From NCBI GenBank assembly GCA_001643675.2, contig LSRY02000051.1, forward strand, positions 372,001-436,000: a stretch of 64,000 nucleotides of DNA. The letters are read 5' to 3'. The notes below the pieces were generated by a model, which did no database searches, was not told where the DNA came from, and was given only the letters and a program-made list of their open reading frames with translations. Positions 13,688 to 59,800 of this stretch are shown here, piece after piece. The stretch comes from Monocercomonoides exilis PA203. Its lineage: Eukaryota > Protista > Preaxostyla. The position numbers were made by a program, and so were the translations under genes. Within the stretch, counting starts at the first letter, position 1. Each line of letters starts with the position of its first letter.

Positions 13688-15620
13688 TTGAAACCTTTGG
13701 CCTTTGCCTGTTTTTATTTTTATCCCACTTCATCCAAACGATTTCTTACAAACTTAATTTCTATTTCAATTGTGATTGACATTTATTCTCTTACGTTCCA
13801 ATCAACGGCTTTCTCTTCCAGCTCGTTCAAAACGTCATCAGGAGATCCTTTGTTTCTTTCTTCAACAATTCCGACACTTTTCTCTCTGCCTTTAATGCTT
13901 CTTTTCTCCACCAAACAAGTTCTTCATCAAATGCTGCTGTGGTTCACATTGGAACAGAATCTCAAAGAGCAAAACCTGTAAGATTGACTTCATTCGATTT
14001 AAACAGTTATCGCTTTGAATGATGCGAATGGAATAATTCAAATAGCGGAAGTGATCATGGAGGTGCTCTAAAAGTCAACTGCACAAATGCAAATCTCACA
14101 ATAACTTTTTGTTCATTTTACAATTGCTCTTGTACAGGTAATGGCCACGGCGGAGCATTATATTGTAATCGTTCGTTGAAGACTGACATTACAAAATCAA
14201 ATTTCACAAGTTGTTCGGCCACTCATGGAGGAGCAATTTGCATTGCTTATCCACAATCAAATTCTGTTTATTCATTCTCCGAAAACAGAGTGGAAAGTTG
14301 TAAAATAACAAGTTGGTGTGGAACCGGTTGGTATTTCTTGCTAAATGACTTGTCTGCATCTGGCCAATTTCTGTTCACAAAATGCAAGTGTATAGCAAAT
14401 ACTGGAAGTGATTGTGCTGGTTCTCTGTCATTTTTTAATCCTCCAGGAAATAAACCAAATCAATTCTCAATCAATGATTTTCAGTACATAAACAACAAAT
14501 TGACTGCCTCTTCCACATGGGGTGGGGCAGGTATTTAATTGGACGTCACTTATTCCTGGATGAGTGGTGCAAAATTCATCACTTTCTGCTTCTTCGATGG
14601 CAACACTGCCACAAATGGCAGAGGAAATGACGTGTTCTTTTACGGAAGTGATATTACCCAATCCCCATTCGAGAATTGTGGATCAACAACTCCAACAAAA
14701 AGAGTGTGGAATCAAGGAACAGCTGATAATACCGTGTTCAATGGCTGGCTCCCCCTCGTTGCCCAGAACAAAATCGTTGCCAGCAATGGAACTAATTCTG
14801 ATGCCTGTGGCAGACCCCAACAGACCCCATGCGCCACCATCGAGTATGCCCTCAACAGCTTCATTTCCCTCCTCCAAGACGCCTCCCTCACCCGCCTTTC
14901 CTCAATATTTGTTCCTCTTCAAACACTAACCTTCAGCGCCATTGACACAAAAATCACAGGAAATGGCACAACCGCCACCACCATCGCCTCCAGTGGCATT
15001 CCCCAACCACCAAACTCACATTCACAGTCATCACAATCAACATCATCTCTTTCCTCATTTTCATCATTTTCATCTGCATCTTCTTCACCAGATCCATCTG
15101 CCACTTCTGCCCTCTTCCAACAAACCCAGGGCTCCCTCACAGTCTCTGCCCTCGCCATCTCCCACAACTCCACAAATCCCATCACCCCCATCCTCTTCCA
15201 CCTCTCCCAAAACTCCCCTTCCCTCAAACTCAACACAACCACAATCACCGGAACAACCCCATCTTCATCATCAATCACAACTCCCCTCTTCTTCCTCACT
15301 GCTGGCTCCCTCGCCCTCAACCACACAACAATCACCAAACTCATCCTCAACAGCCACCCCCGCCAGCTGTGTCCTCTCCTCTGCCACCTCCCCTGCCCTC
15401 TCCTTCTCCCTCACCAACCGCACCATGGCAAATATCACCTCAGAACAGTTGAGCCAACAGACTGCCACCAATGGCGGGTGCATCTCATTCTCCTCATCTG
15501 CATATGTCAACCCGTTTTCGGTGAGCAACACCATCTTCTCCACCTGCTCTGTGAGCGAAAGGAAAACGGATATCGAGAAAATAAAGGAGGAAAAAATTGA
15601 AGAGAATGTGGGATGCTTCT
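13688..15620 (+). pseudogene. Truncated, disrupted member of the pectin-lyase-like beta-helix surface protein family (same family as 50869-59949)
   Basis: GGAL/GGAI motifs. WMSGAKFITFCFFDGNTATNGRGNDVFF..QSPFE aligns with WMS..FIYFCFFCEN..LRGNDCYF..QSPFE of the giant protein, and DACG..TPCATIEYAL is a family module. In-frame TAA at 14536-14538, frameshift near 15355, abrupt end. Confidence 0.7.
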
Positions 15621-16185
15621 GAAAACAGAAGCGAAGGTACAAAGAAGATTCGCTATTCTTTGAAAAGAAAAAGAACAGAAATATTGATAAGGATGAGTTT
15701 GAAAAGGAAGAAAGAAATGATAACGAAAATAAAGATGATTTACAAGATGAAAAGAACGAGAAAATTAAAGAGAAAGATCATTTTGAAATTATAAGATTAC
15801 GACAAAAAAGAGAATGAGTGAAAAAATGAAAGAAAATTAGGAAAATGAAAAAGGAAAAGGAAATAGACATACGATTCTGCAATTTTTCCATCACTATTCT
15901 ATGTTAATAGTGATGATTCATTCTGTATTATAAAACACTCGCATAAAACAAATTTGTTCATCAGAATTCATAGAATATCGTTGTATTCTTTTTATCATTT
16001 ATGCAAAATTGATAAAAATTATCTTCAAAGTGAATCATTCTTCACTTAAAACTCAAAACAAATAATTATTTCATTTTGTTGACAAATTATTTATTAAACA
16101 TTTATTTATTTTATGCTTATTTTCACGCTTCCGTAGAATAATCAAAATTTCATTTATGAAATTGTCAAAAAAGGTTTGATTTTTC

Positions 16186-16579
16186 GGCATGATTTAAGAA
16201 AGGTGGGCAAAAAAATTTTATTGAAAAAATGGCAAAAAAGAGCACCCCTCCGGGTTCGAACCTTCGACTCACCAACTTGCAAGTTTGTTAGCAAGTCGCT
16301 GGTGCCGATCGGCTAGAGTGCTCTATTTTTCTATACTTTTCTTACACAAATATTTATAATAAAACCCTAACACTAAAAATTGATCAAAAAATGAACCACT
16401 TTTTTCGAGCGCAAACCCTAAAAAGAAGAGCGGGAACAAAACCCTAAGCCCAAGAACTGTTACGCTAACCCTACAACCTAAACCAAGCAACTAATACAGA
16501 GATTATTTTTGAATTTTAACCCTAAAAATATAATTATACTGGGTCAGATCAATTTTGCCCACCTTTCTTAAATATTGCC
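16186..16579. mobile_element. 394-bp Merlin/IS1595-type MITE, copy 1
   Basis: TIRs GGCATGATTTAAGAAAGGTGGGCAAAA / TTTTGCCCACCTTTCTTAAATATTGCC (27 bp, 3 mismatches). Exact 8-bp TSD GATTTTTC at 16178-16185 and 16580-16587. GG termini plus 8-bp TSD are Merlin hallmarks. Confidence 0.9.
16239..16324 (-). ncRNA. tRNA-like / Pol III type-2 small RNA unit inside the MITE
   Basis: Minus strand: terminal stem AGAGCACTC/GGGTGCTCT; A-box TAGCCGATCGG (16315-16305); B-box GGTTCGAACC (16262-16253); CT-AAC-AA anticodon-like loop; T6 run at the 3' end (16239-16234). The T-stem does not pair, so this is not a canonical tRNA. Confidence 0.6.
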
Positions 16580-16916: not shown

Positions 16917-19900
16917 ATGAGAAACGATACAAATTCGATGAGTAATTGTACATCTGACAGATCGGAAATGAGCAAGTGGACAGAAAATAGTGGAACTTTT
17001 GGTGATAAAGATGGAAGAACAGAGGCAATGCGACATATCATCAACACAAAAACTGAACCGCCTGAAGGGATGAGACATGACATTACTCTTGCAGATAATG
17101 ACGGATACACAATGGCCATGCTCTGGATCAAATATGTCAAAACAGAACCACCAGAGTGGATGAGACATGACAAAACAATTAAATGTGGTTCAGAAGAAAA
17201 GACAATAGACATGATATGGTTTGAATATGTGAAAACAGAGCCACCCAAGTGGATGAATTATGAAAATACAAAGAAAGACAAAAACGGAAGAACAGATGCA
17301 ATGAAATGGATTCAAGAGACAAAATCTGAACCACCAGAGTGGATGAGACACGATGTTTCTCTTGCTGATGAGGAAGGAAGAACAATGGCCATGCTCTGGA
17401 TTGAATATGTGAAGACAGAACCACCCAAGTGGATGAGGCACGATGTTACACTTGCTGATAAAAATGGAAGAGCAATGGCTATGATTTGGATAGAAAATGT
17501 TAAGATAGAACCACCTAAGTGGATGAGGCATGATAAAAAACTTTTTGATGACAAAGGAATGACAATGGCTATGTTGTGGATTCGATATGTCAATACGGAG
17601 CCACCAGAATGGATGAGACATGACAAAACAGTTGCTGATGAAGAAGGACAGACAATGGCCATGAATTGGATTGAATATGTAAAGACAGAACCACCAGAAT
17701 GGATGAGACACGGAATTAGTCTTGCTGATAAGGAAGGACAGACACTGGCCATGTATTGGATTGAATATGTCATGACAGAACCACCAGAATGGATGAGACA
17801 CGGAATTACATTAGGAATTGGAGAAAGGGGAACAATGGCTATGATGTGGATTGAATTTGTGAAAACAGAACCACTAGAATGGATGAGACACGGAATTAGT
17901 CTTGCTGATAAGGAAGGACAGACACTGGCCATGTATTGGATTGAATACGTCATGACAGAACCTCCGGAATGGATGAGACACGATGTTTCTCTTGCTGATA
18001 AGGAAGGACAGACAATGGCTATGCACTGGATTGTATATGTGAAAACAGAACCTCCGGAATGGATGAGACATGAGAAAACACTTGCAAATGAGAAAGGAAT
18101 AACAATGGCCATGTTATGGATTGCAAATGTGAAGATAGAACCTCCAGAATGGATGAATTATGATAATATGCTTCGTGATGATAATGGAAAAACAGAAGCA
18201 ATGCGTTGGATTGTTTTGAATAAAACTGAACCACCCAAGTGGATGAGACATGATATTACTCTTGCAGATAATGACGGATGGACAATGGCCATGTTGTGGA
18301 TTCAAGGAATCCAAACAGAACCGCCAGAATGGATGAGACATGACAATGAACTTGCCAATAAGAACGGAGAAACAATGTGCATGCGTTGGATAAAGGAAGT
18401 GAAGACAGAACCTCCAGAATGGATGAGACATGGAATTTCAATTAAAGGAGGATTTAGGGAACGAACAATGGCCATGCATTGGATTGAAAATGTGAAGACA
18501 GAACCTCCAGAATGGATGAGACATAATATCATGTTTCGTGATAATTATGAAAAATCAATGGCCATGCTCTGGATTGAAAATGTTAAAACAGAACCACCCA
18601 AGTGGATGAGACATGATATTACTCTTGCAGATAATGACGGATGGACAATGGCCATGTTGTGGATTCAAGGAATCCAAACAGAACCGCCAGAATGGATGAG
18701 ACATGATATTACTCTTGCAGATAATGACGGATGGACAATGGCTATGATTTGGATTAAATATGTGAAGACAGAGCCACCAGAATGGATGAGACACGATATC
18801 ACACTTTGCAGCAATAACGGACAGACAATGACCATGCTATGGATTGAATATGTGAAGACAGAACCTCCGGAATGGATGAGACACGGAATTACTCTTGCTG
18901 ATAAGGAAGGACAGACACTGGCCATGTATTGGATTGAAAATGTCAATACGGAGCCACCAGAATGGATGAGACACGGCAAAACAGTTGCTGATAGCAGAGG
19001 AAGAACAATGGCTATGCACTGGATTGTATATGTGAAAACAGAACCACCAGAATGGATGAGACACGGAATTAATCTTGTTGACGACAAAGGAATAACAATG
19101 GCCATGTTATGGATTGCAAATGTGAAGATAGAACCACCAGAATGGATGAGGCACGATATCACACTTTGCAGCAATAAAGGATGGACAATGGCCATGCTCT
19201 GGATCGAATGCTTCAAGAAAGTCATACCAGAGTGGATGATACGTGACAAAAAATTAACTGATGAAAGCGGAACAATGGCCATATTTTGGATAAAATATGT
19301 GAAGACAGAGCCACCAGAATGGATGAGACATGATATTACTCTTGCAGATAATGACGGATGGACAATGGCTATGATTTGGATTAAATATGTGAAGACAGAG
19401 CCACCAGAATGGATGAGACACGATATCACACTTTGCAGCAATAACGGACAGACAATGACCATGCTATGGATTGAATATGTGAAGACAGAACCTCCGGAAT
19501 GGATGAGACACGGAATTAGTCTTGCTGATAAGGAAGGACAGACACTGGCCATGTATTGGATTAAATATGTGAAGACAGAACCACCAGAATGGATGAGACA
19601 TAATATTACAATTAAAGGAGGATTTTGGGAACGAACAATGGCCATGGATTGGATTGAATACGTCAAGACAGAACCACCTAAGTGGATGAGACACGATATC
19701 ACACTTTGCAGCAGTAACGGACAGACACTGGCCATGCATTGGATTGAATACGTCATGACAGAACCACCAGAATGGATGAGACATAATATTACACTTGGAA
19801 AAGGAAGATGCGGCACAATGGCCATGTTCTGGATCAAATATGTCAATGCAGAACCACCAGAATGGATGAGACACGATATTACAATTAAAGATGGTGGGGG

Positions 19901-20333
19901 AGAAAAGACGATGGCCATGCTCTGGATTGAATACATCAAGACAGAACCACCCAAGTGGATGAGGCACGATGTTACACTTGCTGATAAAAATGGAAGAACA
20001 ATGGCTATGATTTGGATAGAAAATGTTAAGATAGAACCACCTAAGTGGATGAGACACGATGTTTCTCTTGCTAATAAACATGGTGAAACAATGGCCATGT
20101 CCTGGAAAATATTGGTCATGACAGAGCCACCCAAGTGGATGAATTATGAAAATACAAAGAAAGACAAAAACGGAAGAACAGATGCAATGAAATGGATTCA
20201 AGAGACAAAATCTGAACCACCAGAGTGGATGAGACACGATGTTTCTCTTGCTGATGAGGAAGGAAGAACAATGGCCATGCTCTGGATTGAATATGTGAAG
20301 ACAGATCCACCAGAATGGATGAAGACAGATTAA
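16917..20333 (+). CDS. Intronless 1138-aa tandem-repeat protein: 37 x ~30-aa Trp/Met-rich, ankyrin-like repeats (consensus EPPEWMRHDxTLxDxxGxTMAMxWIxYVKT)
   Basis: Uninterrupted 3.4-kb ORF with ~90-bp DNA periodicity. DxxGxTxAM resembles the ankyrin DxxGxTPLH turn. No signal peptide, TM segment or catalytic domain seen. Confidence 0.9.
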   Translation: MRNDTNSMSNCTSDRSEMSKWTENSGTFGDKDGRTEAMRHIINTKTEPPEGMRHDITLADNDGYTMAMLWIKYVKTEPPEWMRHDKTIKCGSEEKTIDMIWFEYVKTEPPKWMNYENTKKDKNGRTDAMKWIQETKSEPPEWMRHDVSLADEEGRTMAMLWIEYVKTEPPKWMRHDVTLADKNGRAMAMIWIENVKIEPPKWMRHDKKLFDDKGMTMAMLWIRYVNTEPPEWMRHDKTVADEEGQTMAMNWIEYVKTEPPEWMRHGISLADKEGQTLAMYWIEYVMTEPPEWMRHGITLGIGERGTMAMMWIEFVKTEPLEWMRHGISLADKEGQTLAMYWIEYVMTEPPEWMRHDVSLADKEGQTMAMHWIVYVKTEPPEWMRHEKTLANEKGITMAMLWIANVKIEPPEWMNYDNMLRDDNGKTEAMRWIVLNKTEPPKWMRHDITLADNDGWTMAMLWIQGIQTEPPEWMRHDNELANKNGETMCMRWIKEVKTEPPEWMRHGISIKGGFRERTMAMHWIENVKTEPPEWMRHNIMFRDNYEKSMAMLWIENVKTEPPKWMRHDITLADNDGWTMAMLWIQGIQTEPPEWMRHDITLADNDGWTMAMIWIKYVKTEPPEWMRHDITLCSNNGQTMTMLWIEYVKTEPPEWMRHGITLADKEGQTLAMYWIENVNTEPPEWMRHGKTVADSRGRTMAMHWIVYVKTEPPEWMRHGINLVDDKGITMAMLWIANVKIEPPEWMRHDITLCSNKGWTMAMLWIECFKKVIPEWMIRDKKLTDESGTMAIFWIKYVKTEPPEWMRHDITLADNDGWTMAMIWIKYVKTEPPEWMRHDITLCSNNGQTMTMLWIEYVKTEPPEWMRHGISLADKEGQTLAMYWIKYVKTEPPEWMRHNITIKGGFWERTMAMDWIEYVKTEPPKWMRHDITLCSSNGQTLAMHWIEYVMTEPPEWMRHNITLGKGRCGTMAMFWIKYVNAEPPEWMRHDITIKDGGGEKTMAMLWIEYIKTEPPKWMRHDVTLADKNGRTMAMIWIENVKIEPPKWMRHDVSLANKHGETMAMSWKILVMTEPPKWMNYENTKKDKNGRTDAMKWIQETKSEPPEWMRHDVSLADEEGRTMAMLWIEYVKTDPPEWMKTD

Positions 20334-20979
20334 TTTCACATAATTGCAAAAGAGTGTTTCGTTGGAAGTGAAATTCGTTTCTTGAACTTCAACGAATCAA
20401 CATTTCACTGTGTGTCTGAACAAAAACCTTTGTCATTCATGAGATGAAATGTTTGATGTTGGAATGTTCTTTCTTTCTTTTATGAATTGATTTTTACTTT
20501 TTCGATGGAAATTTGGACATGCTTCAAAAATTATTCATTTTTGAACCTCTCCTTTTGTCTTTTCATTGCTTTGATATTTTCTGTCCAAATGTGCGAATCA
20601 TTTCACTTTTCGAATTTTTAATTTCTCAGATTCATCAAATTTGTTGATTTTCTTTTTCATTGTAATATCCACATGCACAAGTTGATTAATTCAGATGAAG
20701 TATTATTTTTTTTCCATTCATTGCCATTCATTTCAGTTTCACAATAATAACTGATATCGTAAAATCCATTTTTTCTTTCAAAAAAAACAGTCAAGAAATC
20801 AGAAGAAATGAAAGAAGCGAGATGATAGGTTGAGAATTAATAAGGATTAACAATCTTCAACAAAATATTATTTTGAGTGTTTGACAAGGTTGATGAGAAA
20901 GAAGAGATAAGGAAGAGATTACCATCCATCCCATCAACTTCAACAGCAAAATCAGAATTTAACATTTGTTCAATCGCTT

Positions 20980-22493
20980 GGCATAAACATACAAAACGCG
21001 TACCAAATTTTTTCACCTAATAACAACAACAGAAGTTCCATTTGATGATTCCGTTAATATTCAGTACGAAACATCTTGCGAAAAGAAATGTGCATGAAAA
21101 AAGAACAAAATTTTTTTCAAAAAAAATTCATGAAAAAATATCATTTATGGTTCAAATTCCGAAGAATCTTCTCCTGTTCCAGCTCCAAATGGATACGAAT
21201 CCTCGCTTTCTGATTTTAAAAGTTCTTCTTCAGTATTTTCTTCATCTGTAATTCCAAAAATGTCATTCATATCAGGAATTTCTTCGTTTTTATTAACTTC
21301 ATCATCGTCAATTTCCAATTCAAATTCATCTTCAGATCGAAAATTGATAACTTTTTCTATGAATTCTCCGAAGGAAATTTAACCTGATCTTTTCACAATG
21401 AATGTCGCAAGCACTCCAGGAATATATCGCTTTCTCACTCCATATCAAGGGAAAAAAGATCGCAAATGTGCCCACATTCCTTCGATAGTGTTCGTGTTGG
21501 CTTTCGTAACAGGATCGACGTAATGACGTTTAGGCAAACGGTTTGGTGTGTGTAACCAATTTCTCCTTAGCAAGTGTAAGCTTTCCACTCGTCGCTGATT
21601 ATTGTTGATCCTTCTTTGATTCTGTTTTTAATTATATGGATTAGTGTCTCTTTTTTCCGATTTGGCACAATGACCATTTAATTATTTCCTAATTCTTCTT
21701 CACCTTTTCGTTCGATAGCTCCAAATATCCACATCAATTTTTTCTGCTTTCCTTATTCGAAAAATAGTTTTATTCAAGGCAAATAAATTTATATTTATGT
21801 CAACAAAATAAATATATGATGTTAAAACCTTTTTTGTATTTCCGTCTCCTCCATGCAGCTTCATCAATTACCTCTATTTAACCAGCCCCTCCAATTTTTT
21901 CATTTCTGTAATTTAAGTTATTTTATGCAGTCGACCTTGATATTCCTGTCTAGTATCTAATCGTCATTTGAGATTCATTTAGCATCATGCCAATTTGCAA
22001 ATCTTTGATTTCCAGCCAAAACATCAAAAGAATCATCATCACAGTAGAAATAAGCAATTTTGAAGACCCCAGAGTCGTATTTTTTAAGCAGGAAACACTT
22101 TGCTTGCACAATGAACACTTCAAAAAACTTGAATGTCCCCTTCCTTTACAGATATATTTGACTTTTTTGCAGTGTTGACAAACTTCAAATACCTTCGGAA
22201 AATACTGTTGTATCCATTTCCAAGATGATTCATCAGATGAAAATGTCTCATACAGTGAATGGCACACCTTTTTGAAAGGTTTTTTGCAAAAATTCAAATT
22301 TTTGATCGATAAAAATTTTGTGATCAAACCCATTTTTTATGTGATTTTTTGATAAAAATTATATTTTTAATTTTGTCCAGAGGATGCAAAGCGCAGACAA
22401 AGAACATAATATTCTCAAACCTAATAAGCAATAGATTTCGAAAATGATTGAAAGAATCAAAAATATTAGGTATGCTTATTCTATGCTTATGCA
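20980..22493 (-). mobile_element. Degenerate autonomous-type Merlin (ISXO2/IS1595-like) DNA transposon
   Basis: GGCATAAACATACAAAACGCGTACC (20980) vs the reverse complement of GGTATGCTTATTCTATGCTTATGCA (ending 22493) match 19/25 and enclose the transposase pseudogene. No clean TSD. Confidence 0.65.
21145..22333 (-). pseudogene. Merlin/ISXO2-like DDE transposase pseudogene with N-terminal CxxC..CxxC zinc ribbon and one probable intron
   Basis: Motifs CQHC..CSLC, KIGGAG*IEVIDE, WIFGAIER, VPNRKKETL, TIISDEWKAY, HQTV, YVDPVTKANTNTIEGMW and an acidic tail. Several in-frame stops and a frameshift. Confidence 0.88.
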
Positions 22494-22565: not shown

Positions 22566-22954
22566 GGCATGATTTAAGAAAGGTGGGCAAAATATTTTTA
22601 TAAAAAAAATGGCAAAAAAGAGCACCCCTCCGGGTTCGAACCTTCGACTCACCAACTTGCAAGTTTGTTAGCAAGTAGCTGGTTCCGATCGTTTAGAGTG
22701 CTCTATTTTTCTAAACTTTTCTCACACAATTATTAATAACAAAACCCAAACCCTATAAATCCAATAAAGATCAAGTTTTTTCAAGAGCAAACACTAAAAG
22801 GAATAGCGGGAACAAAACCCTAAGCCCAAGAACTGTTACGCTAACCCTTCAACCTAAACCAAGCAATTAATACAGAGATTATTTTAGAATTTTGACCCAA
22901 AAATATAATAATACTGGGTCAGATCAATTTTGCCCACCTTTCTTAAATATTGCC
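22566..22954. mobile_element. Merlin-type MITE, copy 2 (direct orientation to copy 1)
   Basis: Same TIRs and internal sequence as 16186-16579 with scattered substitutions. Flanks CAAAATTG / TATATCTC do not form a TSD. Confidence 0.88.
22619..22704 (-). ncRNA. tRNA-like Pol III unit, copy 2 (A-box mutated)
   Basis: B-box, terminal stem and T-run identical to copy 1. The A-box is changed to TAAACGATCGG and there is one substitution in the central hairpin. Confidence 0.45.
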
Positions 22955-23264
22955 TATATCTCTGTGTACAAATGAGGAAATTTGATCTTGAAATGATGAA
23001 CGTGTTGTGTTAATCTTCCATATGTATTTATTTTCTTTTTTGTTTGTTTTTAAAACTGAATAAGAATTTTTTATTTTTTGTGACTTTGTTGATCGTTTTC
23101 TAAAACAGTTACACTTTTGCTTAAAGAAAAAATGGAAAGAAGTTGACATTAAAAGAATGATTAAGCTTTTTCAATATTATTGGTTATAAGTTATTATGAT
23201 TCTTAATAAATGAAAATATGATTATTTTTATAGAAAATCCAATATTTCTCACTTTGAAGTTGCA

Positions 23265-24240
23265 CGATTTTCGAGCAGAAATGGAAAAACAAGGAAATGA
23301 TGGACAGTTTTGGGATGAGTATAGAAGAACTGAGCTTCTTTGAAGTATGAAATTTTAAAAGAAAAACACAAGATGCTCAAAAAAAAAGAAACTGCAGTTG
23401 GAGAAAGCTGCAGCATTGCTGAAGAACATGGAATATTGTAAAGATGTGTCCGTCAAATGAAGTTATTGCTAAAGCAATTCTTCGTTGAACGGATATATTG
23501 TGGGAATTATAATTGAAGACAAGAAAAAAGAAGAAAAGAACGAAAAGCTGATGTGTGATCTTTGTGAATGCTATCAATTGTTTAACTGCAGGATTTCACC
23601 TGAATTTCTTCATATCATTGTGCATTGTCTTCTGAAAGCTGCATTGAAGAAAGTGGAAAGCTAGGAAGTTCTAAAAGATGTGGAAATAGTTTTTCTCGCT
23701 TTGAGCAATGCTGGACATTCCATGTGAATATTTCTATTTCCTTTTTGATATTTTTGCGTTTTTTCTAATTTATTGATAAGAATACAATTAAGAATTCTGT
23801 TATAATGAAATCAATGAAATTATCCAACATCATACTGAATTTCACAATCTCGCACAACCCGAGAATCGGTCAACTTATTTGGTTTGAAAAATTGTTATTG
23901 TTGAACGAAGGTTTGGATTGTTTAATTACAAATGAACTGCATATTATCAGAGTTGCAGAAAGAGATATAAAGAAGTCTCTGAGTACGCAGATTGTGAGAG
24001 AAAAGGAGAAACAACAAGCGAAGGAGAAAGAATGTAACAAATACAATCATTTGATGGATCAAAACAATGGTATTTTGGTATTTTGAATTTTGAATAATGA
24101 AAAAATTGGTCTCGTAAACGGTTTTGTTCAGCCTATTCGAGAGGAAAAGTATATCAATATTCATATAATCTTTCAATGCTTTAATTCCTTGGAAGAAAGC
24201 AAGAAGCGGAGATGTGAGTGATTAAACATTGTTGAATGAT
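23265..24240 (+). pseudogene. Decayed paralog of the multicopy family gene at 44245-45686
   Basis: Fragments LMCDLCECY, VHCLLKAALKKVES*EVLKDVEIVFLALSN and EIIQHHTEFHNL match LLIDLCEC, VPCLLKVALKKEESEKAQKEVEIALLALSN and EIIKYHQEHHNL. Stops and frameshifts present. Boundaries approximate. Confidence 0.75.
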
Positions 24241-24851
24241 GCAATCACTGCAATCTGCTCGTTTTATTTTTTATAATGAAAAAAACTTTCACTCGTTCAA
24301 AGTCACCCCACCACCACCACCACCTCCCCTCTCATAGACACATATGCAGTTGGTCATATTAAATATGATCAACGCCAGTTTATTATTTTTATTGTTCACT
24401 TTTTCATTTCTGAAATTTGCTGTATTTTTCTTGTGATGACAAAAGAGGAAATAATATTATGAATAAAGATATGCAATGTTTAACCGTTTTTCAAGTTGTC
24501 ACTTTTGTTGATCTTTCGTGGATAATGATTAAATAACAATAATGTTCAATAACATTTGAATACAGAACAAAATTTGAAGAAAGCAGAAGACATTCATGTT
24601 TCATTTTCAAATTTGGAAAATACATGAAATAGATGATTTTTTGTTTAATCACACGAAGAAAGAACTCAAGTGTGAAATGATCAAAAACAAAAATGGTCGT
24701 GTCGATTTCAATATTTTCAGTTATTTTTAATTCTTATCATCTCTTTTTTCTTCCTCAATTTTTTATATTTTTAACGTTATTTGAATTTATGTTTTCGTTT
24801 TTCATTTTTTCTATCTTCTGATCAATATCAACCTTAAAAATAAATTTATAT

Positions 24852-25322
24852 ATGCAAGGAAATAATGAAGTGGACATTGATGATTCGTCTGAAGACATTG
24901 AGCCTTTATTAAAGTATCATTTTATTCCACTTGATTTTATGTGCGAAATACGCGTTACAGCAAAGTGCATGACTCTTAATTCAAAGCAAATAGCTGTTGG
25001 ATCATCAGATGGACATGTGTATGTTCTGAGCAATCAAGGGACTCTATTAAAGACATATAAGCCAGCATCATCGCCAATAAATGCTTTATCAATTTCTGAG
25101 GATCATTTTATTGGAGTTGCTTCCGAAGAAGGACTTGTAGTTGTTATTGCACCTTCTGATGAAGGAATAGTTGTAAAACATCAATTTCCAAAGGGAGTGA
25201 ACGCAATTGCGTTGCATCCTAATTACGGAAAGCAAAAAGAATTCGTTGCTGGAGGTGTTGAAGAAAAACTGACATACACTTCAAAAGGTTAATTTTTATC
25301 CTTTTGGAGAATAATCATTCAT

Positions 25323-25361
<39 letters not shown>

Positions 25362-28300
25362 GCATGTTTCGAAATAACACTAAAGATTTATCTACAAATG
25401 ATGGTGAAATATTGAATATTCGATGGAATGGTCGTTATTTGGCATGGGCTACAACATTAGGACTTAGAATTTATGACTTTGAACGACAAGCACCAATTGC
25501 ACGCCTTACAATGTTTAATTCAAAACAACGTGCTCTTGCAAAATTATATCCATTTTGTCTATGTTGGCGGGGATTAAACGACTTATTTGTTGCATTCGGC
25601 AATCGCATGATCATGTACCGAATTCATGAAACACCAGATGAAAAAGGCCGACTTGCTTCAATTGTTCATCAGATGGATGGGTTAGACTTTTGCATCTGCG
25701 GAATAGCTCCATTTCTTCACCACTTAGCGATGCTGTGCAGCTACGAGCCATCAACTCCGACTGCTCCACGCAGCCCTCCTGAGCTGAGGATTGTCCGTCT
25801 GGACATTCTGCCGATCGGACGTGTTTCACTTGATGATGTGCTGCGTGCTGAGATGAGCTGCGATTCGCTGATTATCTCGCCGAGCTCTTCCGCCGAGCAG
25901 GCAGCACTCGGCACCTCTTCCTCAACAATAAGCGGCGTTCTCGACGACTCGCTGACTGTGCAGCCTTCTCCAATCTCTCAGCACTCCTCTTTCCGCCCGA
26001 AGGACATATCGCTCTACCACGTCGACGGGCTCATTAACCTGTTTGTCCTCTTCTGCGGCGGCGGGGCAGCTGGGCTTGCTTCCTCTGCGAACTCGCCGCA
26101 GTCTGTTGGAGGCAGCATCGTGTGTGGATCGCACATCACCACCGACGACCACGTAGGCTGGCTGATCTCGCGAGGGAGATATGCAGCTGCGCTGGAAGAC
26201 GCCGAGAAGGCGCGGAGCGGCGAGCTGAAGCGGACGACGGTGGACGACATTGTGTCGCGCTATTTGGATGTGCTGGTGAAGAAAGGGGACTGGCCGTCGG
26301 TGATTGCGCTGACTGAGAAGCACCTCCGCGGCAACGTGTCGCTTTTTGAAGGCGTCGTCTGCTGGCTCATCTGCATCGAGCACCTCGAGGCGCTGGGGGT
26401 GCTGCCTGTTTCTGAGCCACAGCTGGACGGGCGGGTGTACGAAATGGCGCTCTGCTACTTCCTCTGCAGAGACACAGCTCGCTTCAAGACAGAGGTGGGC
26501 AGGATTCCTTACCAGCTGTATGACCCAAAGGTTGTTCTCGCACAGATAGACGAGGTTGTGGACTTGTACAAGGACGTGGCTGCTGTCGTATCGGAGTTTC
26601 CACTTATTGACAGTATGCTATTGCTATTTTTCTTTTAATATGCTTTTTTTCCCCCTTTTTTTAATTAAATTAATCAACATTTCCATTTTTTCTTTGAATG
26701 AACTGTTCAATTGAACCAACCCTGTATATATACATTCATTCATTCATACATACATTCAAACATACACAGAAGGCGACCGTCATTCTGTTCCTCATTTCCA
26801 GAGCACATCTGACCGGATCTCCTTTCTGCAGAGTGTGACACAAGGAAGCATGACGCGGCAGCTGATTCTGAGTCGTTGTCTGAGCGAAGTGGCGATGCAG
26901 CTGAAGGAAAAGCGGATGGCACTGCAGGAAGAGTTTGTGGTGATCAATGCGATGTACCTGCTGCGCCTGGAGCGGATGCAGGAGATGGTAGAAGAAGAAG
27001 AAGACGATGATGATGAAGATGATGATGAAGATAACAGTGAAGAAGAAGAAGAAGGCAATGAAGCAAAAGGAGAGGTGACAGGAAGCAGAGACAGCAGGGG
27101 AGTGTTGAAAGAGACACAGACAGAACAATCGCCGACTGTTCTCAACACCCTTGAGACAGACAGAAGAGAGCACAAAAAGGAGGAGAAAGAGAAAGAGAAA
27201 GAGAAAGAGAAGAAGAAGAAGAAGAAGAGAGTGAAGAGCAGCCAGCAGCCAGCCCAGCCGTCTGCACAGAGTGGGATAGCAGATCTGTCAGCTGATGAGC
27301 ACCAGTTCATCCGCGACCAGATTGCGTTGGGTGCATTTGGAGGCATTCCACCTGGGCTGAGCGAGGCAGATCTGTCTGCCTATTCCCGCTATGCTGTCGA
27401 GGCAGAGCAGCGCCGGCAGCACGAGAGAGAAATGGAGCTGGAGAGAGAGAAAGAGAGGGAGGTGGAGCGGGCGAGGAGGCAGATGAAGCTCCCTGCGGCA
27501 CTGGCACAGGCACCGCTGGGGGGTGTTGGTGTGCCGTCGGGTGCATCAATACACTCAACATTGTCTTCGCTCTTCAGCTTCTCTCACATCAGCGCCTGCA
27601 ATTGCCAGCACCACACCCCACTGAATGGCAGACCCCTCTTCTCGTTTGCTTCGCCTGTCAAAAACAACAATTCATCTTCACTTGCTTCTTCTTCTGCTTC
27701 TTCTTCTCCTTTCTACGGTCTGCCTTCACGCAACTCTTCCACTTCATCCACATCCACATCCACATCCACATCTTCTTCATCATCTCCTTCATCATTCACT
27801 TCACGCACATCCACTTTGTCTTCTTCTTCTTCCTCTTTCTCTTCCTCCTCTTCTTTCCTCAGCTCTTCTCCTCTGACAGCTGTTGATGCAGACACGATGA
27901 CACTGCTGTCACTCGAGCTGCAGCGAAAGGAATACAAAGCAGCACAAGTCATTTTGTGGCTGATGGAAAAAGAGAGAGAGAGAATTCACACCGCTCTGCT
28001 TCATTGCAACAGGCTCATCCTCTTCTTTCAGCACCTCATTTCACTCTGGGTGAAGATCCCTCAGACAAATCAGACTTCTTCATCTGCATTTGCTTCCTCC
28101 TCTGCAGCAGCAGCAGCTGCTGATGGCTCAATCTCAGAAGGTGCAGAGAAAGAGAAAGAGAAAGAAGTGCTGGCAAAGGAATACGAAAAGAAGGAAACAC
28201 AACATTCTATTCTATCAACTGCCTCCAAACGAATGGGATCTTCATCTCCTCTTCCTCCCTCCCAGGCAGAGTCAATCGATGCCCTCAAGGCTAATCCCTG

Positions 28301-50868: not shown

Positions 50869-53800
50869 TCATAAAAAACTCATATTTTCCTGCTCACTTC
50901 TGCTTTCTGAATCTCTAGGGCGTTCGCTTTCTCCACAGCACCCACTGTAGCATTCGACAGCATCTGTCATTGTCAGTACTGCAGCACCTGGAGGGAAGCG
51001 TTGGATAAGCTCACGCTTCAGCAAAGCCAAAGTGGGCCTTTGTGAGGCACATCCAGACAAGCAGCACTTGGTAACATATTGCAATGAGGAAGTGCTTATT
51101 CTTTCAAAATTCGGTCTTTCACCATTCACAATCTTCTGGCCCGCCACCACACCCTCATACTCCCCAAACGGGATCTCCAGCGTCACACACTCCCACAGCA
51201 TCATCCCAATCGAAAAGGCAACTGATTCCTTTGTTGCCCCCATCTTCCTGTTCATCAGCAATTCTGGTGCCATCCACCTCAAGCTCTCTTTTCTAATATC
51301 GTCGTCGTCTTCAAACGCGGATGAAGGAAGGGAGACATCATCATCATCGCTGGCAGAAGTCACAACAGTTAATGAAGAGATCGATGAGGAATCTGAATCA
51401 TCAGAAGAAAGGAAATCGGAATGCATCACAATGCAGATCACCATGTGTTCAGAAAACAACACAATGTGAGGACTCAGACTGGACAATGACTGAAGCTTGT
51501 TTTCCATTTCATCAAATGAGTGAAGTGCAAGATTTGCCACCCAGAACAGGATCTGAGCAGCTGTCTGCTCCCTCTCCTTCAAGGAGCCAATTGGCATCTC
51601 TTTTGTCTTGTTGCTTCCATGAAGCAACATGAACAACGAATCCCTCAAATCCACAATCAGCTTCTCATGAGGAGATGAGCAGGCCATTGCATCCACCAGA
51701 TTCGACATCGACGAGGTGGTTGGACACAGATCCTCCCCTCGAACAAAAGTTGAATCTGAATCAGTTGTCGAAGTGGATGAGATGGAAGGTGAAGGAGTTC
51801 TCTTTCTCACCTCTTCCTCCTCTTCCTTTTCTAATGTCCAATCAGGGATCTTATCTGAATCTTTCCCCAAAATGTATTCTGTCGATCCGCTTTCACTCAA
51901 CAAATGCTCTGACGATTCTGAGTGTCCCAAGCTTTTCTCATATACTCTCTTCTTGATCCTCTCTTCATTCTTCTTCTCTGCCTCCCTCTCTGCTCTCCTC
52001 CACTGCTCCTCTGGTGACACCTCCATCGTCACCATCTCAAATGCCTTCGGATCCTTCTTCACTGTATCATTCACTATTTCTTCCAATTCTTCTGTTCGTC
52101 TCTCAGATTTCCTCCATCGAACTGCAAGAATAACAGAAACAATCAGAACAATCAAAAGAATAATTGCCATAATTATCACTATCAACGGCCAATACGATTT
52201 TCCTTCTTTTCCTCCTTCCACCACTTTTTCATTTCCAGTCTTTGGTTCTGTTTTGTTCTTCAGAATCTGTGGAGAAGTCTCTGCCAATTGCTTCCCAAAC
52301 AGAATCATCACTGTCACCTCCGTTTCATCTGCAATTGCTGTTATATTTTCTGATGAGATTCTTCCAATCACTTCCGTTTCGGATACAAAACTGTCTTCCT
52401 CAAACCGATATGTCTCAGCCAACTCCACATCTCCTGTTTTGAATATCAATCTGAATGACAAGTCGCAAGGCACAAAAAGTGATCCCTTGAATTTCACAAC
52501 AACATTGCTTTCGTTTTCGTTCACTGAAACATCTTCCAGTTTGGGAATAAAGAAAGGCGATGGCCTTTCTCCTGCGAATCCTTCGAGAGTGCATCCATCA
52601 TTCAAGATCCAAAGAGAAGAATTGTCATTCAATCCATCTCCGCCTTTCAAACTCGAAATGATCAGTGAAGCAGAATCTGAGCAAATGACGTTTCGACGAA
52701 AAGAGGGATATTTTTCGATGAAAGGATTGTTGTTCAAAAACTCCCCTTTCTCGATCGTCACATCGCCAGCTGATACGGAAAATCCACCTGATGATGAATT
52801 CGAAATTATAACATCCTTCATCACCAGTGAAGAATTCGCTGAGTGAACAAGTGATCCATTCCATTTGCATATTTCTTCAAAATTATTATTTCTCTCACTT
52901 TCACTTACTTTTGAAAGAATTCCTTCAAACTCACACGTTTGCATCGAAACATCCTTTGCATTGCTTATCTCCATTATGCTTCCTTTAACAGAGAGAGAAT
53001 CACAATTAGAACAGGAACAGTTTGAAAGAATTACTTGTGCTGAAGTTGAAGAAGCTGAAAGAACAGAAGCTCCTTTTGAATTTCTCGAACAGTTGTTGAA
53101 TGAGGAGATTCCAATAGAAACTGTTCCTGATGACAAATCGTTTATCGCAATGATGCAACCTTCAGACAATTTCACTCCATCTGCAGATACTCCATAAAAC
53201 ACAACACTTCCACAATCACCAATCTCAAATACATCTGTTGTTGATTCAATTTGTTCCAGTTTCACATTCGTAATATTTATCTCATCACAGTTAAGCAAAA
53301 ATGAAGGCTTTTTGAATGAAAGGAACGATACTGAGCAGTTGTCAATATGAAAAATTCCATTTTCGACGCTCAGCAATGATAAGTTGAGAACAATAGATTC
53401 TATATTATCTGATTGGCCAACAGATGAAAAATCAACAGATGAAAGAGAAAGTTGTCCACTTGCTTCATGAATGATTGAAATGCCTGAATATGAAAATAAC
53501 AGATCAAAACTGAATTTCAATCTCTCAATCCGAACATTCTCTGAGGTTGTGATAAGACTTCCATCGTTGGTTATTGTTGAGTTCAGATGCACCAAAGCAG
53601 CTGAGGGAGATTGCAATGAGCGGATGATCACATCATGAACATCACATTTCCCAATAATAACTGTTTGCCCCAAGATCAGCAACTGAGAGAATAGAGATGG
53701 AATAACGTGCTGAACTCCCATATTCAATGAGTTGCATGGCATACTAAATTCTCCGCATTGCTTGCTATCTCCGTGGTTGCCTGTTGCTGAAGAAACAAAT

Positions 53801-56800
53801 ATTGTCTCGCTCTGGTATTTCACAACCTTCAGCAGAAGATCCTCTTCCCCAACAAACGAGTCTGTTGTGCAGCCCCATATCGCTCGTTCCTTCACAAACG
53901 GTGTTCTGAAATCCAAAAGGAACTGCTCATCAACAATCTGTGTATCAACTGAATTGCATCGAATATACACATCTCTCCCTCTCAATGCAGAGTTGTCTTT
54001 GAACGTGATGTTGGATAGCATAAAGTTCAGAGGCTTTTCATCTGTCGAGGTGCATTCCAGAAACAGCCACCCACCTCTTCCTATGGTTGAGCAGAAACAC
54101 TCAGAAATCGTGCAAAAAGAGCAGTCAAAACTTCCTCCCTCATTCAACACATAAAACATCCCTCCTCCCTTTCCACACTTCAACCCTCCACATCTCTTCA
54201 TTGTTGTGTTTCGAATCACCATTTTCAATGGCTCATCATCATTATCATTTCGGATGATCGGAATATCATCTGTTGTGTTCTGGGTGACTTCCTCGAATAT
54301 GCTCCACTCAATAACAACATCTTGCTCAACTTCATTTGTCTCTCTTCTTGAACTCTTTGATATGCTCAATCCACTCGTCCCATCAAGTTGAACATCCTTC
54401 ATCGTCAGGTTTTTAATCTTCAAAATCGTTGATGAAAGCACAGAAACAATATCTTTTGAAAAGCTAAGTGATTGAACTTTCACAAATTCCAACACTATTG
54501 TCCCTCCTTCTGCTTTGATCAGCCCATAATTCATTATTTCTCTTCTGCTTTCTTCATTTTTTGAGAACGAACAATCTTTCGCAGTCAACAAACCATCGTT
54601 TGAGCCAACATATATCAAATAATTGACTCCACTCATGAATGAAGAAGGAATCACAAAATTAATTAATTCGAAATTTGTGTTTCCCTGAATCTTCAAAGCA
54701 GCTCCTTCTGCTCCTTCAAGAGATGAAGCAGATTCCAAAGAGCACATGCTGCTATTATCAGATTTCACTGAAATTCCACTCACATCAACACTCTTCTGAA
54801 GATACCCTTTTCCAATGATGTTGACATTCCTTTCATTTCCTTCTGACAATCTCGTCAGTGAATAATCGATTGACAGACAAGGATAATCTGAGTATCCGCA
54901 GGCACCCATATCTCTTCCTTCACTGCAAATAAATACTTCCGAACAAAATGTTAACCAGAAATAAACCAGTGGAATGGCATTCGTTGTGTCACTCCCATCA
55001 AAGCCTCTCATAGAATCAAACGAAAGATCAGCCAGATGATCGGACACAAATGGAAGTGAATCATTCGTGATGCTCTTCGTCAAGTTGGATGATTCAACAA
55101 AAAGATCATTTCCATATCTCGCGACATTTGGCTTGCCTGCCTCAAAAACAGGGGATGAGATCACAAAAGAAATTTCGTCATCAACCACCTTCATCGCCAT
55201 CCCTCCACCAAAGCCAGTCTTTTCTTCTTCAGCTGGTGTTGTGCATCCTGTGAATGTGCAAGAAATAATATCCAAGTGCGTATTCCCTTTCAACTGCACA
55301 TTGATAGCCCCTCCTCTGCTTCCTTTTTCATACACAGAACATCCATCAAAAATGCATTCTTCAATATTTATTTGTGTATTTGTTCTTTCATCTTGATTGT
55401 TGTCAATGTTCAAACAGCCTGCATTTCCAGAAGTTCTGGCAAATGATTTCATTTGACATTTTGTAATGTTCAATTTTTGTTCATTGCAGCATTCAACCAA
55501 ACACTCATTCTGCTCCCCACTTCCTGAGAAATTGCTTTCCACAATTTCAACTGAACTTAAACCTCCGCTATTTCCATCACAAATTATTGCGCTTGTCTGC
55601 CATTTGATCCCAATCCCAAACACATTGCTTATCATCACTTCACCTTCTTCAATCTTCACAAAGGAAATATCCAAGCTATTTTCAGAAGCAATTATCCCAC
55701 AATCCTGAATTATCACTTTGTTGGAAATGCAATGGAATATGCTTTCATATGATCTTATTCTTTCTGCAACAGAAAACACCACCTTGCCAAAGGTTGTTGG
55801 ACAGCGCGTCTCGAATACTCCCCTTTGTGAACCAGAAATGCCTGCTCCTATCTCATGATTTGATGTGTTTCCTTCTCCACTCACACTCCACTCATTTGAA
55901 TCCATCTTTAATTCTTCCCCAAAAGAGAACGGAGAATTCAGCTTGATTGACTTGTTTTTGCCTGAAAACCTCAAACTGGCTGCTTTTGTAATCGTGATGC
56001 ATGGAACTTGCTCGAATCCACAACCACTGAAATCATGAGCCTCTTGCCCACCCACATGGCATGGCGCTGTGAAGTTATTCCACAGATACACAACAAGCGG
56101 TATTTCAAATTCATCATTTGCTGTTGAGCGCTCAAAGCCATTCAACTTTTCCAACTCATTCAAATTAACACCAAAACCGAATATTGCTGAGTCGATTACA
56201 GCACTCAGATCATCAGCATCCAGAAACACATCTTTCCCTTTCCTTCCCTTGCACCCATTAAATTGTATACTATTCAAAATAAAATCAGATGCTTTATCAT
56301 CCAAAACAAAATATATCGCTCCTCCCATTCCCTTCTTCCCATCCGCATTTGCAGTTGCCTCACACTCCGAAAACCCAACCTTTGTTCCTTGCTCACCCAC
56401 ATTTCCATTATTTGGAGGATCTTCTGTAATGTTGCCAACACTGAAGCTTGATCCACTTTTCATATTCATCCACAGCCCTCCTCCATTTCCTCTCTCGCTT
56501 TTGCACAAACTCATGCTTCCTTCCTCAAACACAAATGAACATCCACTTTCCAGTGTGCATTCGATTGCTCCCCCGTTTTCCTCTTTGACTGCAAAATTCG
56601 AAATGTCTGTTCGAATGATTTCTATTTTCTTGGCACTTGTTGAAGAGATGAGCCGTGATGATGCTATTCCTTCAGATGTGGCAATGGAAGAAACATCACT
56701 GTCGCTCATTTGAAGAGAAGCTTTGTTCTTCACTTCAATAAATCCTGATGCATAACTTGTTCCAATCCCATTCAGCTGAATGCTTTTCAACTTGGCTTCT

Positions 56801-59800
56801 GTATTGTCTCCAAACAAAGAAATAAATGGATATCCACTCAAAATCATTGACGAAGCCGAGAACATGTCGATTATTAAGATCCCAGAGTCAATTGATAAGA
56901 ATTGCAATGACAATTCTGATGATGGATTTTGAAGAGAAAGTGAACATTGAATCAAAGAAATTGATGATGAGGATGAAATAAAAGTGGAGCGAAGAGGAAG
57001 GGAAGATGGAAGAGAGAATATCAGTTTTGATAATTCTGTTTCAGCACTTGCTGAAATCATCGCTGAATTAGATGTAGAATTTGAATCAGAAACTGTCCAT
57101 CCACTTTGACCATCTTTTCCTTGGATTTCATGTTTCTGTTCACCAAATGCCAATTCATCGCTCATCATAATCATTCCATTCACAACAACTTTCTTTGTTC
57201 CTGTTTGCCTTTTGAGTGAGTGCTTCATTGTCAAACAAGGGAATTGGACGATTCCACAATGTGAGTGATCAGATGCCTCGACGTTGCTCACAGATATTTC
57301 TTCTGGAGTGGGAAGGAGATAGATACACAGAGGAATGGCCACACCGGTGTTTCCATTGTCATATCCTCTCACTCTGTCAACAGAATCCAAAGAGACTGTA
57401 ACACATCTGATGTTTTCTGATTTTGCTGTTTCTTCCAGATTGGGTGAAATGACAAAGATATCATTCCCCCATTTGGCTGTGTTTGTGCTAAAGGAAGAAG
57501 ATATCAGGAAATTGGGATTTTCATTCAATAATCGAAGAAGGATTCCTCCCCCAAATCCATATGTTGCAGAGCAAAAGCACCCATCAAAAGATCCGCCTTT
57601 CAATTTCACTTCATTTTCGTTTCCAACACACAACATTATCGATCCTCCATTTTCTGAACTTGAACTTCCACATCCTTCAAAAGTGCTCGAATTCACATCA
57701 ATATTTGCCTTATCATTCAAAAACGACATCACAGCCGCTCCGCTCGTTGTTCTTTCAATTCCATCGAATGAACATTCTGAAAGTGTCAATGCAATTTCAT
57801 TTGTCGAAGAAAGCGAAAACAACGAAACAGTTGAAATTGTCTTTGCCCAGTTCACATGTTCCATCTGAAACATCCCATTCTGAACATTGATAAGCTCTGT
57901 GATGAATGCTGTTTCTGCTGATTGTCCGCTCCCAAAAAATATGTTCAGTCTGCTGATGCTCATTCCTCCTGCTCCACTTATCTCAAATAGCCTTGAATCT
58001 CGGTTATTTGGATCTATCGAATTATGCACGATGTCAAAGTTGCTGATGGATAATACGCCCATTGAAACGCAAAAAAGGCATGTTTCTTTTTGATTAAGGA
58101 AGCTTGTTTGCACAACCGAAGAAGTTTCTTCACTTCCACATATATTCAAATGGTAATCTCCAATATTCACTCCTCTTGTGATCAATAAAGAATCTATTAG
58201 TTTCACTTTCCAATTATTTAATGGAAGCGTGTGGTTAACTGCACTTTCAAGCGTCGTGCATGGATTTGATTCTATCAATCCACAAACAGGTGATATATCT
58301 GTTCCTAAAGAAGAGACAAATCGTATTGTTCCTTTCCATGTGGCAAGCCAGTTATCATATTCGGTTAGTTGATTGTTATAAAATATCCTATTAGAATCTG
58401 TGGTTGAAAAAGAGCTTTCAAAAGGAGATTGAACTAAAGAATTTCCAGTGAAATAACAATCGTTTCCCCTGAGATTGTCTGCTAAGTTCTCGCAGAAAAA
58501 ACAAAAATAAATAAAAACTCTGTTTGATTCGCTTGACATCCATGGCTGTGAAAATATAATGATCCCTCCTCCACCATCATTAGTCTGAGTTCCATGGGCT
58601 TTATTCCTAACATAAAGATTGTTTGATATTATCAAATGATTTGTGGATGTTGGAATATATGTCCCTCCACCAAAAGTAGCCGCTTCATTGCTTTCGAAGT
58701 AATTATCTTGAATTATCTCTTCAGAAGTTATTGTCGTAGGTTCGCATCGAATAGCACCTGCATAAATTGTTGAAGATGAACATTTTTCAAAACGACATCC
58801 TTTAACATAATATCCCATTGTTATTTTGTAAATGAGAATAGCTGGTGTGTTATGCACTGCATGGCACGAAGACGAGTTGCTATCTGTCACATTTGTGAAG
58901 GCTGTATTTTGGGAATCAACACAAGTGTGATAATATGAATCGAGATAAGCAAATGAGCATCGAAGGATTGTTACACTGTTCCCTTCTCCTCTAAGAACAA
59001 CACCTGCTGAGTTTATTGAGGAATGGTTTGCATTTTTCCATTCGCAATCTGTGAAAGATGAAGTCTCATTCACTTCAATTCTTTGCATTTCTTTGTTTCC
59101 AGCAATATCACCATTATCTGAAGTAGAACAAGAGCAAAACGATGAATTACTCGTTGAAAATATTGATTGCAAATTTAGTGATGGAGCGATTCTTCCGTAT
59201 ATTGCATCAGAAACTGATGAAAATAAACACCCTCGAATATTCACACAGTTTTGTGAAAAAGTTTGTTGCCCACTGCATAAATTCTCTCTCGAAGTGAAAT
59301 TATAAAAAGATGTGTGATGAATAGCGATTGAGGATAAGGTTGATGATAAGAGAAATGGATTTGAGCTGACTTCATATCCTTCAAAAATTGAATTGCTTAC
59401 ACAAATATAACCTCCTTTAAGGAAAGAATTTTCTGAGTTCATTAAAATTAATGAAGAAAACATTGATTTTTCATGAGAAACTTTTAAAGAAATATTGTGA
59501 AGATTGAGTTTTCCATCACTCAAAATAAAGAAATTGATTTCACTTGTTACAAACAAGTATAAAGAACATGAAATTGCGGACATTTCTGTTTGCTCGCCAA
59601 TTGAAAAGCAAACTTCATTTTTTCGTTTGAAAATTGAGATAAGATCAATATTCAATGTTACGTTTGCACTTTTGCAACTTGCTTCCCATGTTGTTCCATA
59701 ATTTGAAGAAGCATTTTTTGCAATCAATTTTTTTCCGCATAGATAATTTAAGCTATTCTTCATTCCTTGATATTTGAAAGGATTAAGGCAAAACGATAGA

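Follow-up and report, generated by a model that had tools for sequence, protein, structure and literature searches.

A probable shortened ankyrin-repeat variant in a long, reshuffled array from Monocercomonoides exilis PA203

The 64,000-nt stretch of contig LSRY02000051.1 of Monocercomonoides exilis PA203 analysed here (positions 372,001–436,000, referred to in its entirety as the window) carries an intact gene whose product (P0001) is built almost wholly of tandem repeats of about 30 residues. This is probably an ankyrin repeat of a new and shortened kind. The array that it forms is reshuffled and unusually long, and likely binds proteins. As the variation between repeats falls where ankyrins grip proteins, the product is likely to be a reshuffled protein-binding rod and not a code that reads DNA or RNA. 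No description of the repeat or of its PPEWMRH motif was found in the literature listings searched.

Anatomy and predicted fold of the repeat

The repeat array is confirmed as it was first observed in a preliminary description of the sequence, which had reported an intronless open reading frame (ORF) with 37 Trp-rich repeats. The frame is uninterrupted from the ATG at 16917 to the TAA at 20333 (3.4 kb, 1138 codons), and the array comprises 37 anchors, namely 36 full units and a 9-residue partial unit, with a degenerate half-unit preceding unit 1. The full units measure 30 residues in 31 cases, 31 residues in four and 29 residues in one, and none has 33 residues; Tandem Repeats Finder (TRF) detects 36.3 copies at a period of 90 nt (score 2085), and all insertions and deletions within the array are whole codons. 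The near-invariant scaffold with hypervariable positions noted in that description is likewise borne out: E1, P2, M6, M22 and W24 are invariant among the 31 units of 30 residues, and across the 36 full units 11 different residues occur between AM and W and the residue pair following WI is of 13 types. Trp makes up 79 of the 1138 residues (6.9%), two per repeat being conserved. A unit starting at residue 30, within the leader, is scored by the hidden Markov model (HMM) of the family, and the half-repeat of the leader is likely to act as an N-cap. No further domain was found in the 1138-residue protein (by Pfam, with the repeats spanning residues 30–1138 by the family HMM) and no hydrophobic segment (the highest 19-residue Kyte–Doolittle mean is 0.89), and the repeat profile yielded no further copy in the six frames of the window.

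For structure prediction, six of the 37 units were run through AlphaFold without templates, on an alignment of 117 rows, which gave a predicted local distance difference test score (pLDDT) of 96.9 and a predicted template-modelling (TM) score of 0.91, with all five models at a pLDDT of at least 95.9. Each predicted unit comprises, besides a hairpin loop, a helix of nine residues and a Pro-Pro segment whose only helix is a single turn of three residues. A Foldseek search of the PDB returned 103 matches at E ≤ 0.001, the best being 4o60 (E = 1e-5, TM 0.61), and the entries listed are, by title or known identity, ankyrins or designed ankyrin repeat proteins (DARPins). Against BFVD there were 95 matches at the same threshold (best TM 0.70), of which the named ones are mostly giant-virus and poxvirus ankyrin proteins. 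The VIA-align matches are also ankyrin proteins and DARPins; in the best of them, 6moj_A (Z 13.9, root-mean-square deviation 3.1), 175 of the 180 model residues are aligned against about 196, as expected for units of 30 residues set against units of 33. By both comparisons the predicted model is a stack of hairpins and inner helices that forms a groove. The ankyrin motif is described in PMC4353913 as an inner helix and a longer outer helix; the present unit is predicted to retain the ankyrin hairpin and inner helix, with the outer helix cut to the Pro-Pro segment and a single turn.

At the sequence level, the family profile aligns weakly with KANK1 (E = 0.14), in register across the G-x-T motif and the first helix, Ank_2 is matched by nine of the 117 alignment members at E ≤ 0.01, and one relative, P0002, passes the Pfam gathering cut-off for ankyrin (29.8 bits versus 27.3). 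An Atlas look-up with residues 130–430 returned two ankyrin clusters (0.80 and 0.76), which serve as a lead only. The M. exilis protein itself is not a canonical ankyrin: 31 of its 36 units have 30 residues and the family profile has 29 positions instead of a 33-residue period, two helices per repeat are absent from the predicted model, and the protein has neither an ankyrin profile above the cut-off nor a dedicated family profile in Pfam, NCBIfam or PHROGs. The earlier proposal of a distinct ankyrin-like repeat family is supported by both the 233 cluster representatives recovered by the repeat profile and the ankyrin matches of the predicted model. The Pfam matches of the protein to YycE-like_C, RHH_5, ASCH, DUF2556 and four weaker profiles were rejected as sums of short, repeat-inflated stretches, as were those to NF008257 and two PHROGs profiles, and a PDB sequence search with the protein gave titin-type noise only.

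Variable positions, selection and exchange between units

In ankyrin numbering, the seven positions of highest entropy among the 30 are 10, 5, 3, 2, 13, 14 and 33, which are all groove positions. According to PMC8248824, positions 2, 3, 5, 13, 14 and 33 are those randomized in DARPin libraries, and position 10 touches the target in the D5–HER3 complex. The six DARPin sites have a mean entropy of 2.25 bits in the array, a level attained by 71 of the 593,775 possible six-site sets, and among 658 repeats of the relatives the most variable positions are 5, 13, 15, 14, 10 and 3, much as in the M. exilis protein. Because the variable sites coincide with the DARPin and groove positions, the code-like pattern is that of an ordinary ankyrin binding surface, and the earlier suggestion of a modular binder with its variable residues on the ankyrin binding face is supported. 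The protein as a whole is acidic (isoelectric point 5.6, net charge −36), and the 144 residues at groove positions 5, 10, 13 and 14 include 25 Lys/Arg, 24 Asp/Glu and 65 aromatic or aliphatic residues; a neutral groove rich in aromatic and aliphatic residues in an acidic protein fits protein better than nucleic acid as the ligand.

Selection was assessed with a codon model on the 32 unique units, run from two starting values and ignoring recombination. The scaffold (the 23 sites other than the variable seven) was shown to be under purifying selection, with a ratio of nonsynonymous to synonymous rates (ω) of 0.17. The seven variable sites gave a pooled ω of 1.0, so that diversifying selection is not demonstrated.

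The units have not simply been added one beside the other. In their variable segment, 12 pairs of units share 90% identity or more, and none of these pairs is adjacent, the best adjacent pair reaching 83%; in seven pairs one half is near-identical and the other distant. The mean column identity among the repeats and the median nucleotide identity of the variable segment are both 67%. Together with the exact blocks duplicated far apart in the array (Table 1), the non-adjacent twins and half-shared pairs point to copying and recombination between non-adjacent units instead of simple tandem growth.

Transcripts, relatives and genomic setting

The depth of DNA run X1 is 72–113 over those parts of the gene that are unique and 185 over the internally duplicated 185-nt piece, the approximately twofold value expected for two true copies, and no substitutions are listed within the ORF. 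The DNA contigs back the assembly of the gene; none spans the array, so the full order of the repeats rests on the assembly. Run X2 shows four deletions of 1–2 bases inside the ORF, each in one or two contigs and absent from X1, X5 and X6. Its presence in RNA libraries, which the preliminary description had named as a check, was found in three runs at 98% likeness as gene-specific pieces of 120–336 nt with a depth of 7–18; all four RNA runs derive from a single study and consist of contigs, which give no strand, start or level. The RNA contigs span most of the gene and not most intergenic bins (20, 18 and 14 of the 30 bins have any RNA depth, by run, against 30 of 30 for DNA), gene-specific pieces are absent over 16917–17144, approximately the first 230 nt of the ORF, and the RNA-covered stretch downstream of the stop codon is likely to be the 3′ untranslated region. 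In DNA run X1 and in RNA runs X5, X7 and X8 there are contigs in which the scaffold continues into loops that the window does not contain; paralogues are the simplest source of such contigs, and those in RNA suggest that the paralogues are expressed. The summed DNA depth over conserved words, which reaches about 9000, was not used as a copy number because overlapping short contigs inflate it. Immediately 5′ of the gene, the segment 16600–16873 is multi-copy in the DNA runs, and an RNA contig departs at 16839 into other sequence; the segment may be common to the paralogues or may be another repeat.

A search with a two-repeat profile recovered 233 cluster representatives at E ≤ 0.001, of which 143 also pass 1e-10 and 31 pass 1e-30; the best 150 of the 233 were listed. 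Among the 181 proteins compared, relatives carry 1–11 units, most having 2–6, compared with 37 in the M. exilis protein; a word-indexed search gave one relative of similar length among 6233 candidates and 64 shorter ones among 7991. The earlier statement that there is no effector domain holds for the M. exilis protein and fails for the family, since 12 of 180 relatives have a RING-like C-terminal tail by pattern search; Pfam detects RING in ten of 32 scanned relatives, P0005 and P0017 being additional to the pattern set. No longer fused form appeared among 2270 candidates, which is weak evidence. A domain of about 200 residues, for which there is no name, stands alone beside repeat genes at L005:2159–2770 (+) and seems, by eye, to follow the repeats as a fusion in the proteins P0014 and P0164.

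Of 16 metagenome loci, 14 contain at least four repeats; L015 and L016, with zero and one repeat, were discarded as chance matches. Most of the repeat-bearing loci lie on short contigs rich in AT and, beyond their tandem repeat genes, offer no clue. At L010 the repeat gene lies near a 564-residue protein whose Atlas look-alikes (0.97–0.98) include clusters of Parabasalia, Nucleocytoviricota and Preplasmiviricota, in two of which a minority of the members carry capsid or double-jelly-roll families; as the recognition value of these look-alikes is weak, it is only by inference that the neighbourhood resembles a Polinton-like virus of parabasalids. L012 and L013 have 19–20% GC, are gene-dense and encode a resolvase/integrase, a Dda/RecD2-like helicase and a DEAH helicase, the Dda-like helicase matching a contig of a giant-virus metagenome-assembled genome at 32%. 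An 865-residue ORF at L013:5928–8525 (+) has what we presume to be the motifs of a three-domain mRNA capping enzyme, unconfirmed by Pfam, PHROGs, NCBIfam and the PDB; were this assignment true, L013 would represent a very divergent giant-virus-like lineage with 19% GC. The neighbour at L003 is bacterial-looking. The association with viruses that the preliminary description had raised finds some virus-like contexts and no echo in IMG/VR, where pattern scans gave 43 and 40 matches with none confirmed as the repeat, the exact DNA pattern gave none, and a RING-based scan gave 43 loci with the repeat in none. GTDB genomes yielded ten stretches, one weak relative and no loci, and plasmid and phage searches for the repeat gave no true match; a match to Sulfolobales virus YNP2 was rejected because it is off-frame and concerns a short repeat of the opposite strand. 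Given the few virus-like loci and these empty searches, virus-like neighbours are suggested at three of the 14 loci and a viral link is not established for the family as a whole.

The window holds Vps41, DHHC, papain-like and kinase genes (Pfam), which identify it as eukaryotic. The decayed neighbours mentioned in the preliminary description are indeed present, as stop-interrupted frames flank the gene at 13850–15700 and 23250–24250 and a transposase relic lies downstream (Table 1), possibly the mover of the miniature inverted-repeat transposable elements (MITEs) on either side. A composite transposon carrying the gene was rejected, since the 8-bp target duplication around the upstream MITE is not shared by the downstream copy; this MITE is a self-contained insertion and the gene is therefore not the cargo of a composite element. 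No viral hallmark was found by Pfam among the 21 window proteins scanned, and neither flanking viral genes nor ends with a shared duplication, as expected of an endogenous virus or composite transposon, are present. The frame at 13850–15700 (+) is a broken copy of a highly repeated Ser/Thr-rich family resembling surface proteins, for which the summed DNA depth reaches about 20,000 and RNA from related copies is seen. The interior of the MITE contains a tRNA-like segment at about 16240–16322 on the minus strand (ARAGORN, at a relaxed threshold only) and degenerate telomere-like AACCCT runs. Elsewhere in the window, the Vps41-like gene has a short intron at 25289–25367 with a 33-T tract, which one RNA contig (run X7) leaves out, and 50869–60003 (minus) encodes a 3044-residue protein with a membrane segment near residue 2610 and a C-terminal tyrosine-kinase-like fragment.

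Table 1. Features of the repeat gene, its surroundings and one related locus (positions in the window unless a locus is named).
Feature	Position	Strand	Remarks
Repeat-array ORF	16917..20333	+	Intronless, 1138 aa, nearly all shortened ankyrin-like repeats
46-aa leader	16917..17054	+	Polar S/T/N-rich start, then degenerate hairpin + helix half-repeat
36 full repeats, 87–93 nt each	17055..20303	+	TRF, repeat split, predicted fold
Partial 37th unit and stop codon	20304..20333	+	Repeat split
185-nt block, units 3–4	17235..17419	+	Exact duplicate at 20121–20305, units 35–36
116-nt block, unit 14	18228..18343	+	Exact duplicate at 18591–18706, unit 18
205-nt block, units 19–21	18687..18891	+	Exact duplicate at 19314–19518, units 26–28
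Downstream RNA-covered stretch	20435..20725	+ (strand not given by contigs)	RNA contigs
MITE, 394 bp	16186–16579		27–28-bp inverted ends, 8-bp target duplication; 340 bp upstream of gene
ISXO2/IS1595-type (Merlin-like) transposase relic	21200–21900	minus	Stop-interrupted; PF12762 match 21531–21752, Pfam E 5.8e-12
Second MITE copy	22566–22954		91% identical; 2.2 kb downstream of gene, transposase relic between gene and copy
Capsid-like 564-aa gene and three neighbours	L010:873–4996	minus	Adjoining repeat gene; Atlas look-alikes

Proposed function, alternatives and known systems

Taken together, these results make it likely that the gene encodes a long, reshuffled ankyrin-type solenoid and that it is by the customary groove of ankyrins that this solenoid binds proteins. 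In the predicted fold the outer helix is cut to one turn, and the two conserved Trp residues and the Pro-Pro segment would fill the core vacated by the missing helix. Such an array could grip extended peptides or protein surfaces at several groove sites inside the cell, recombination between units would yield new binding surfaces, the RING-fused relatives may be ubiquitin ligases that use the repeats as the substrate receptor, and the RING-less M. exilis protein may be an adaptor, a scaffold or a sequestering binder. Several points weigh against this interpretation. The fold was modelled on six of the 37 units only, a single-sequence AlphaFold run gave an all-β solenoid (pLDDT 60.8, the other four models 31–42), a VIA-align Z of about 13 counts as borderline for repeat proteins under the guidance given with the tool, and there is no ankyrin among the eight weak Pfam matches of the 1138-residue protein. 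The entropy table was seen before the numbering was fixed, position 10 joined the six DARPin sites afterwards, and the placement of the variable sites on one face is deduced from ankyrin numbering and helix periodicity; an ω of 1.0 at these sites is as compatible with relaxed constraint as with selection for diversity, and the protein-binding role is itself a prediction, with a hypothetical partner. The β-solenoid model was set aside in favour of the alignment-based one, its pLDDT being low.

The preliminary description had also raised a nucleic-acid binder or a TALE/PPR-style code, in which each repeat would read one DNA or RNA base through its variable residues. A long array with a fixed scaffold would suit such a reader, as would a superficially small alphabet, the four commonest types accounting for 67% of the pairs following WI and 72% of the residues at position 10; however, the sites are those of the ordinary ankyrin groove, the protein is acidic and its groove lacks a net positive charge, the model is of the ankyrin type and not a helical-hairpin superhelix with a basic track, the fold matches are ankyrin protein binders, 24 different triplets occur at positions 10/13/14 in 36 units, and most relatives, with 2–6 units, have too few for a sequence code, which makes this reading highly improbable. 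It is also rather unlikely that the gene is a selfish or viral passenger, recently inserted, expanded by repeat slippage and of little use to the host. The surrounding MITE copies, transposase relic and decayed multi-copy genes, the virus-like contigs that carry members of the family and the neutral appearance of the variable sites would all be in keeping with a passenger, but no viral gene adjoins it in the window, the MITEs are not the ends of one gene-carrying element, and a frame intact over 3.4 kb, with whole-codon indels and with RNA contigs covering the gene, counts against it, as does the constraint on the scaffold, although this may predate arrival in the genome.

A more elaborate possibility is that the array belongs to a host library of defence or non-self receptors, for which the host would have taken over a repeat used by protist viruses, grown it into long RING-less arrays in several genes and reshuffled it into binders or decoys of viral or symbiont proteins. 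The putative expressed paralogues with loops absent from the window, the copying between non-adjacent units with its half-shared pairs, the relatives beside a capsid-like gene (L010) and on the 19–20% GC, gene-dense contigs (L012 and L013), and a number of units far above that of any relative found are all consistent with this idea, as is an ω of 1.68 for positions 5 and 10 taken jointly (p = 0.023). This last signal, however, comes from sites chosen post hoc, is uncorrected, ignores recombination and vanishes once each site has its own synonymous rate; moreover, neither a NOD nor an effector domain is present in the protein, transfer from virus to host is an assumption, the repeat was not found in the IMG/VR scans, and virus-like neighbours occur at three of 14 loci only, with a bacterial-looking neighbour at L003. 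We consider this scenario doubtful, and give similarly little weight to its fullest form, in which a mitochondrion-poor gut protist would have acquired its minimal one-helix ankyrin repeat from the viruses of anaerobic protists and built from it several genes with very long, recombining arrays, as a natural DARPin library that acts in an immune-like way by recognizing or decoying viral and symbiont proteins.

The reshuffled, protein-binding ankyrin-type solenoid would be of interest in several respects. In the versions searched, Pfam, NCBIfam and PHROGs contain no profile for the repeat, which 233 cluster representatives nevertheless carry, and the predicted model suggests that an ankyrin stack may hold with essentially one helix per 30-residue unit. 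The repeat could therefore offer a shorter natural scaffold for binder design, with the same variable sites as those picked for DARPins, and the RING-fused relatives may, judged from their sequences, represent an overlooked class of ubiquitin ligases, some of them possibly viral. To our knowledge, little is known of non-self recognition in anaerobic protists, and host arrays would provide a handle on it if they recombine and differ between strains.

Among known systems, TALE and PPR proteins are long arrays of near-identical repeats with few variable residues and a two-residue code. The M. exilis protein shares the long array, the near-identical repeats and the small number of variable residues, but has a different fold, an acidic surface and seven variable sites, and neither TALE nor PPR proteins are among its structural matches. 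Poxvirus ANK-PRANC/F-box proteins and giant-virus ankyrins (PMC4353913) are virus-associated arrays joined to a ubiquitin-ligase module, which recalls the RING of the present relatives; they have canonical two-helix repeats and an F-box-like tail, whereas the M. exilis protein has no ligase module and 37 units. In the fungal NLR proteins of Dyrka et al. 2014 (PMC4986451), ankyrin, TPR and WD repeats show high internal conservation, positive selection and strain polymorphism, together with shuffling within the array and variable sites on the concave-face inner helix and hairpin. The last two features are paralleled here, but the M. exilis protein lacks NACHT/NB-ARC and an N-terminal effector, its internal identity of about 67% is below the 85% over at least 100 residues reported there, and its groove sites have a pooled ω of 1.0 where positive selection was demonstrated in fungi. 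It differs from the ankyrins of the Pfam Ank clan in its units of 30 instead of 33 residues, its reduced outer helix and its two conserved Trp residues. The canonical ankyrin motif is TPLH, in the place of which it has T-[ML]-A-M. With ankyrins and DARPins it nevertheless appears to share the hairpin with G-x-T, the inner helix and the stacked solenoid (structural match TM 0.5–0.7 for the predicted model), as well as the variable positions 2, 3, 5, 13, 14 and 33, given in PMC8248824, to which position 10 is added.

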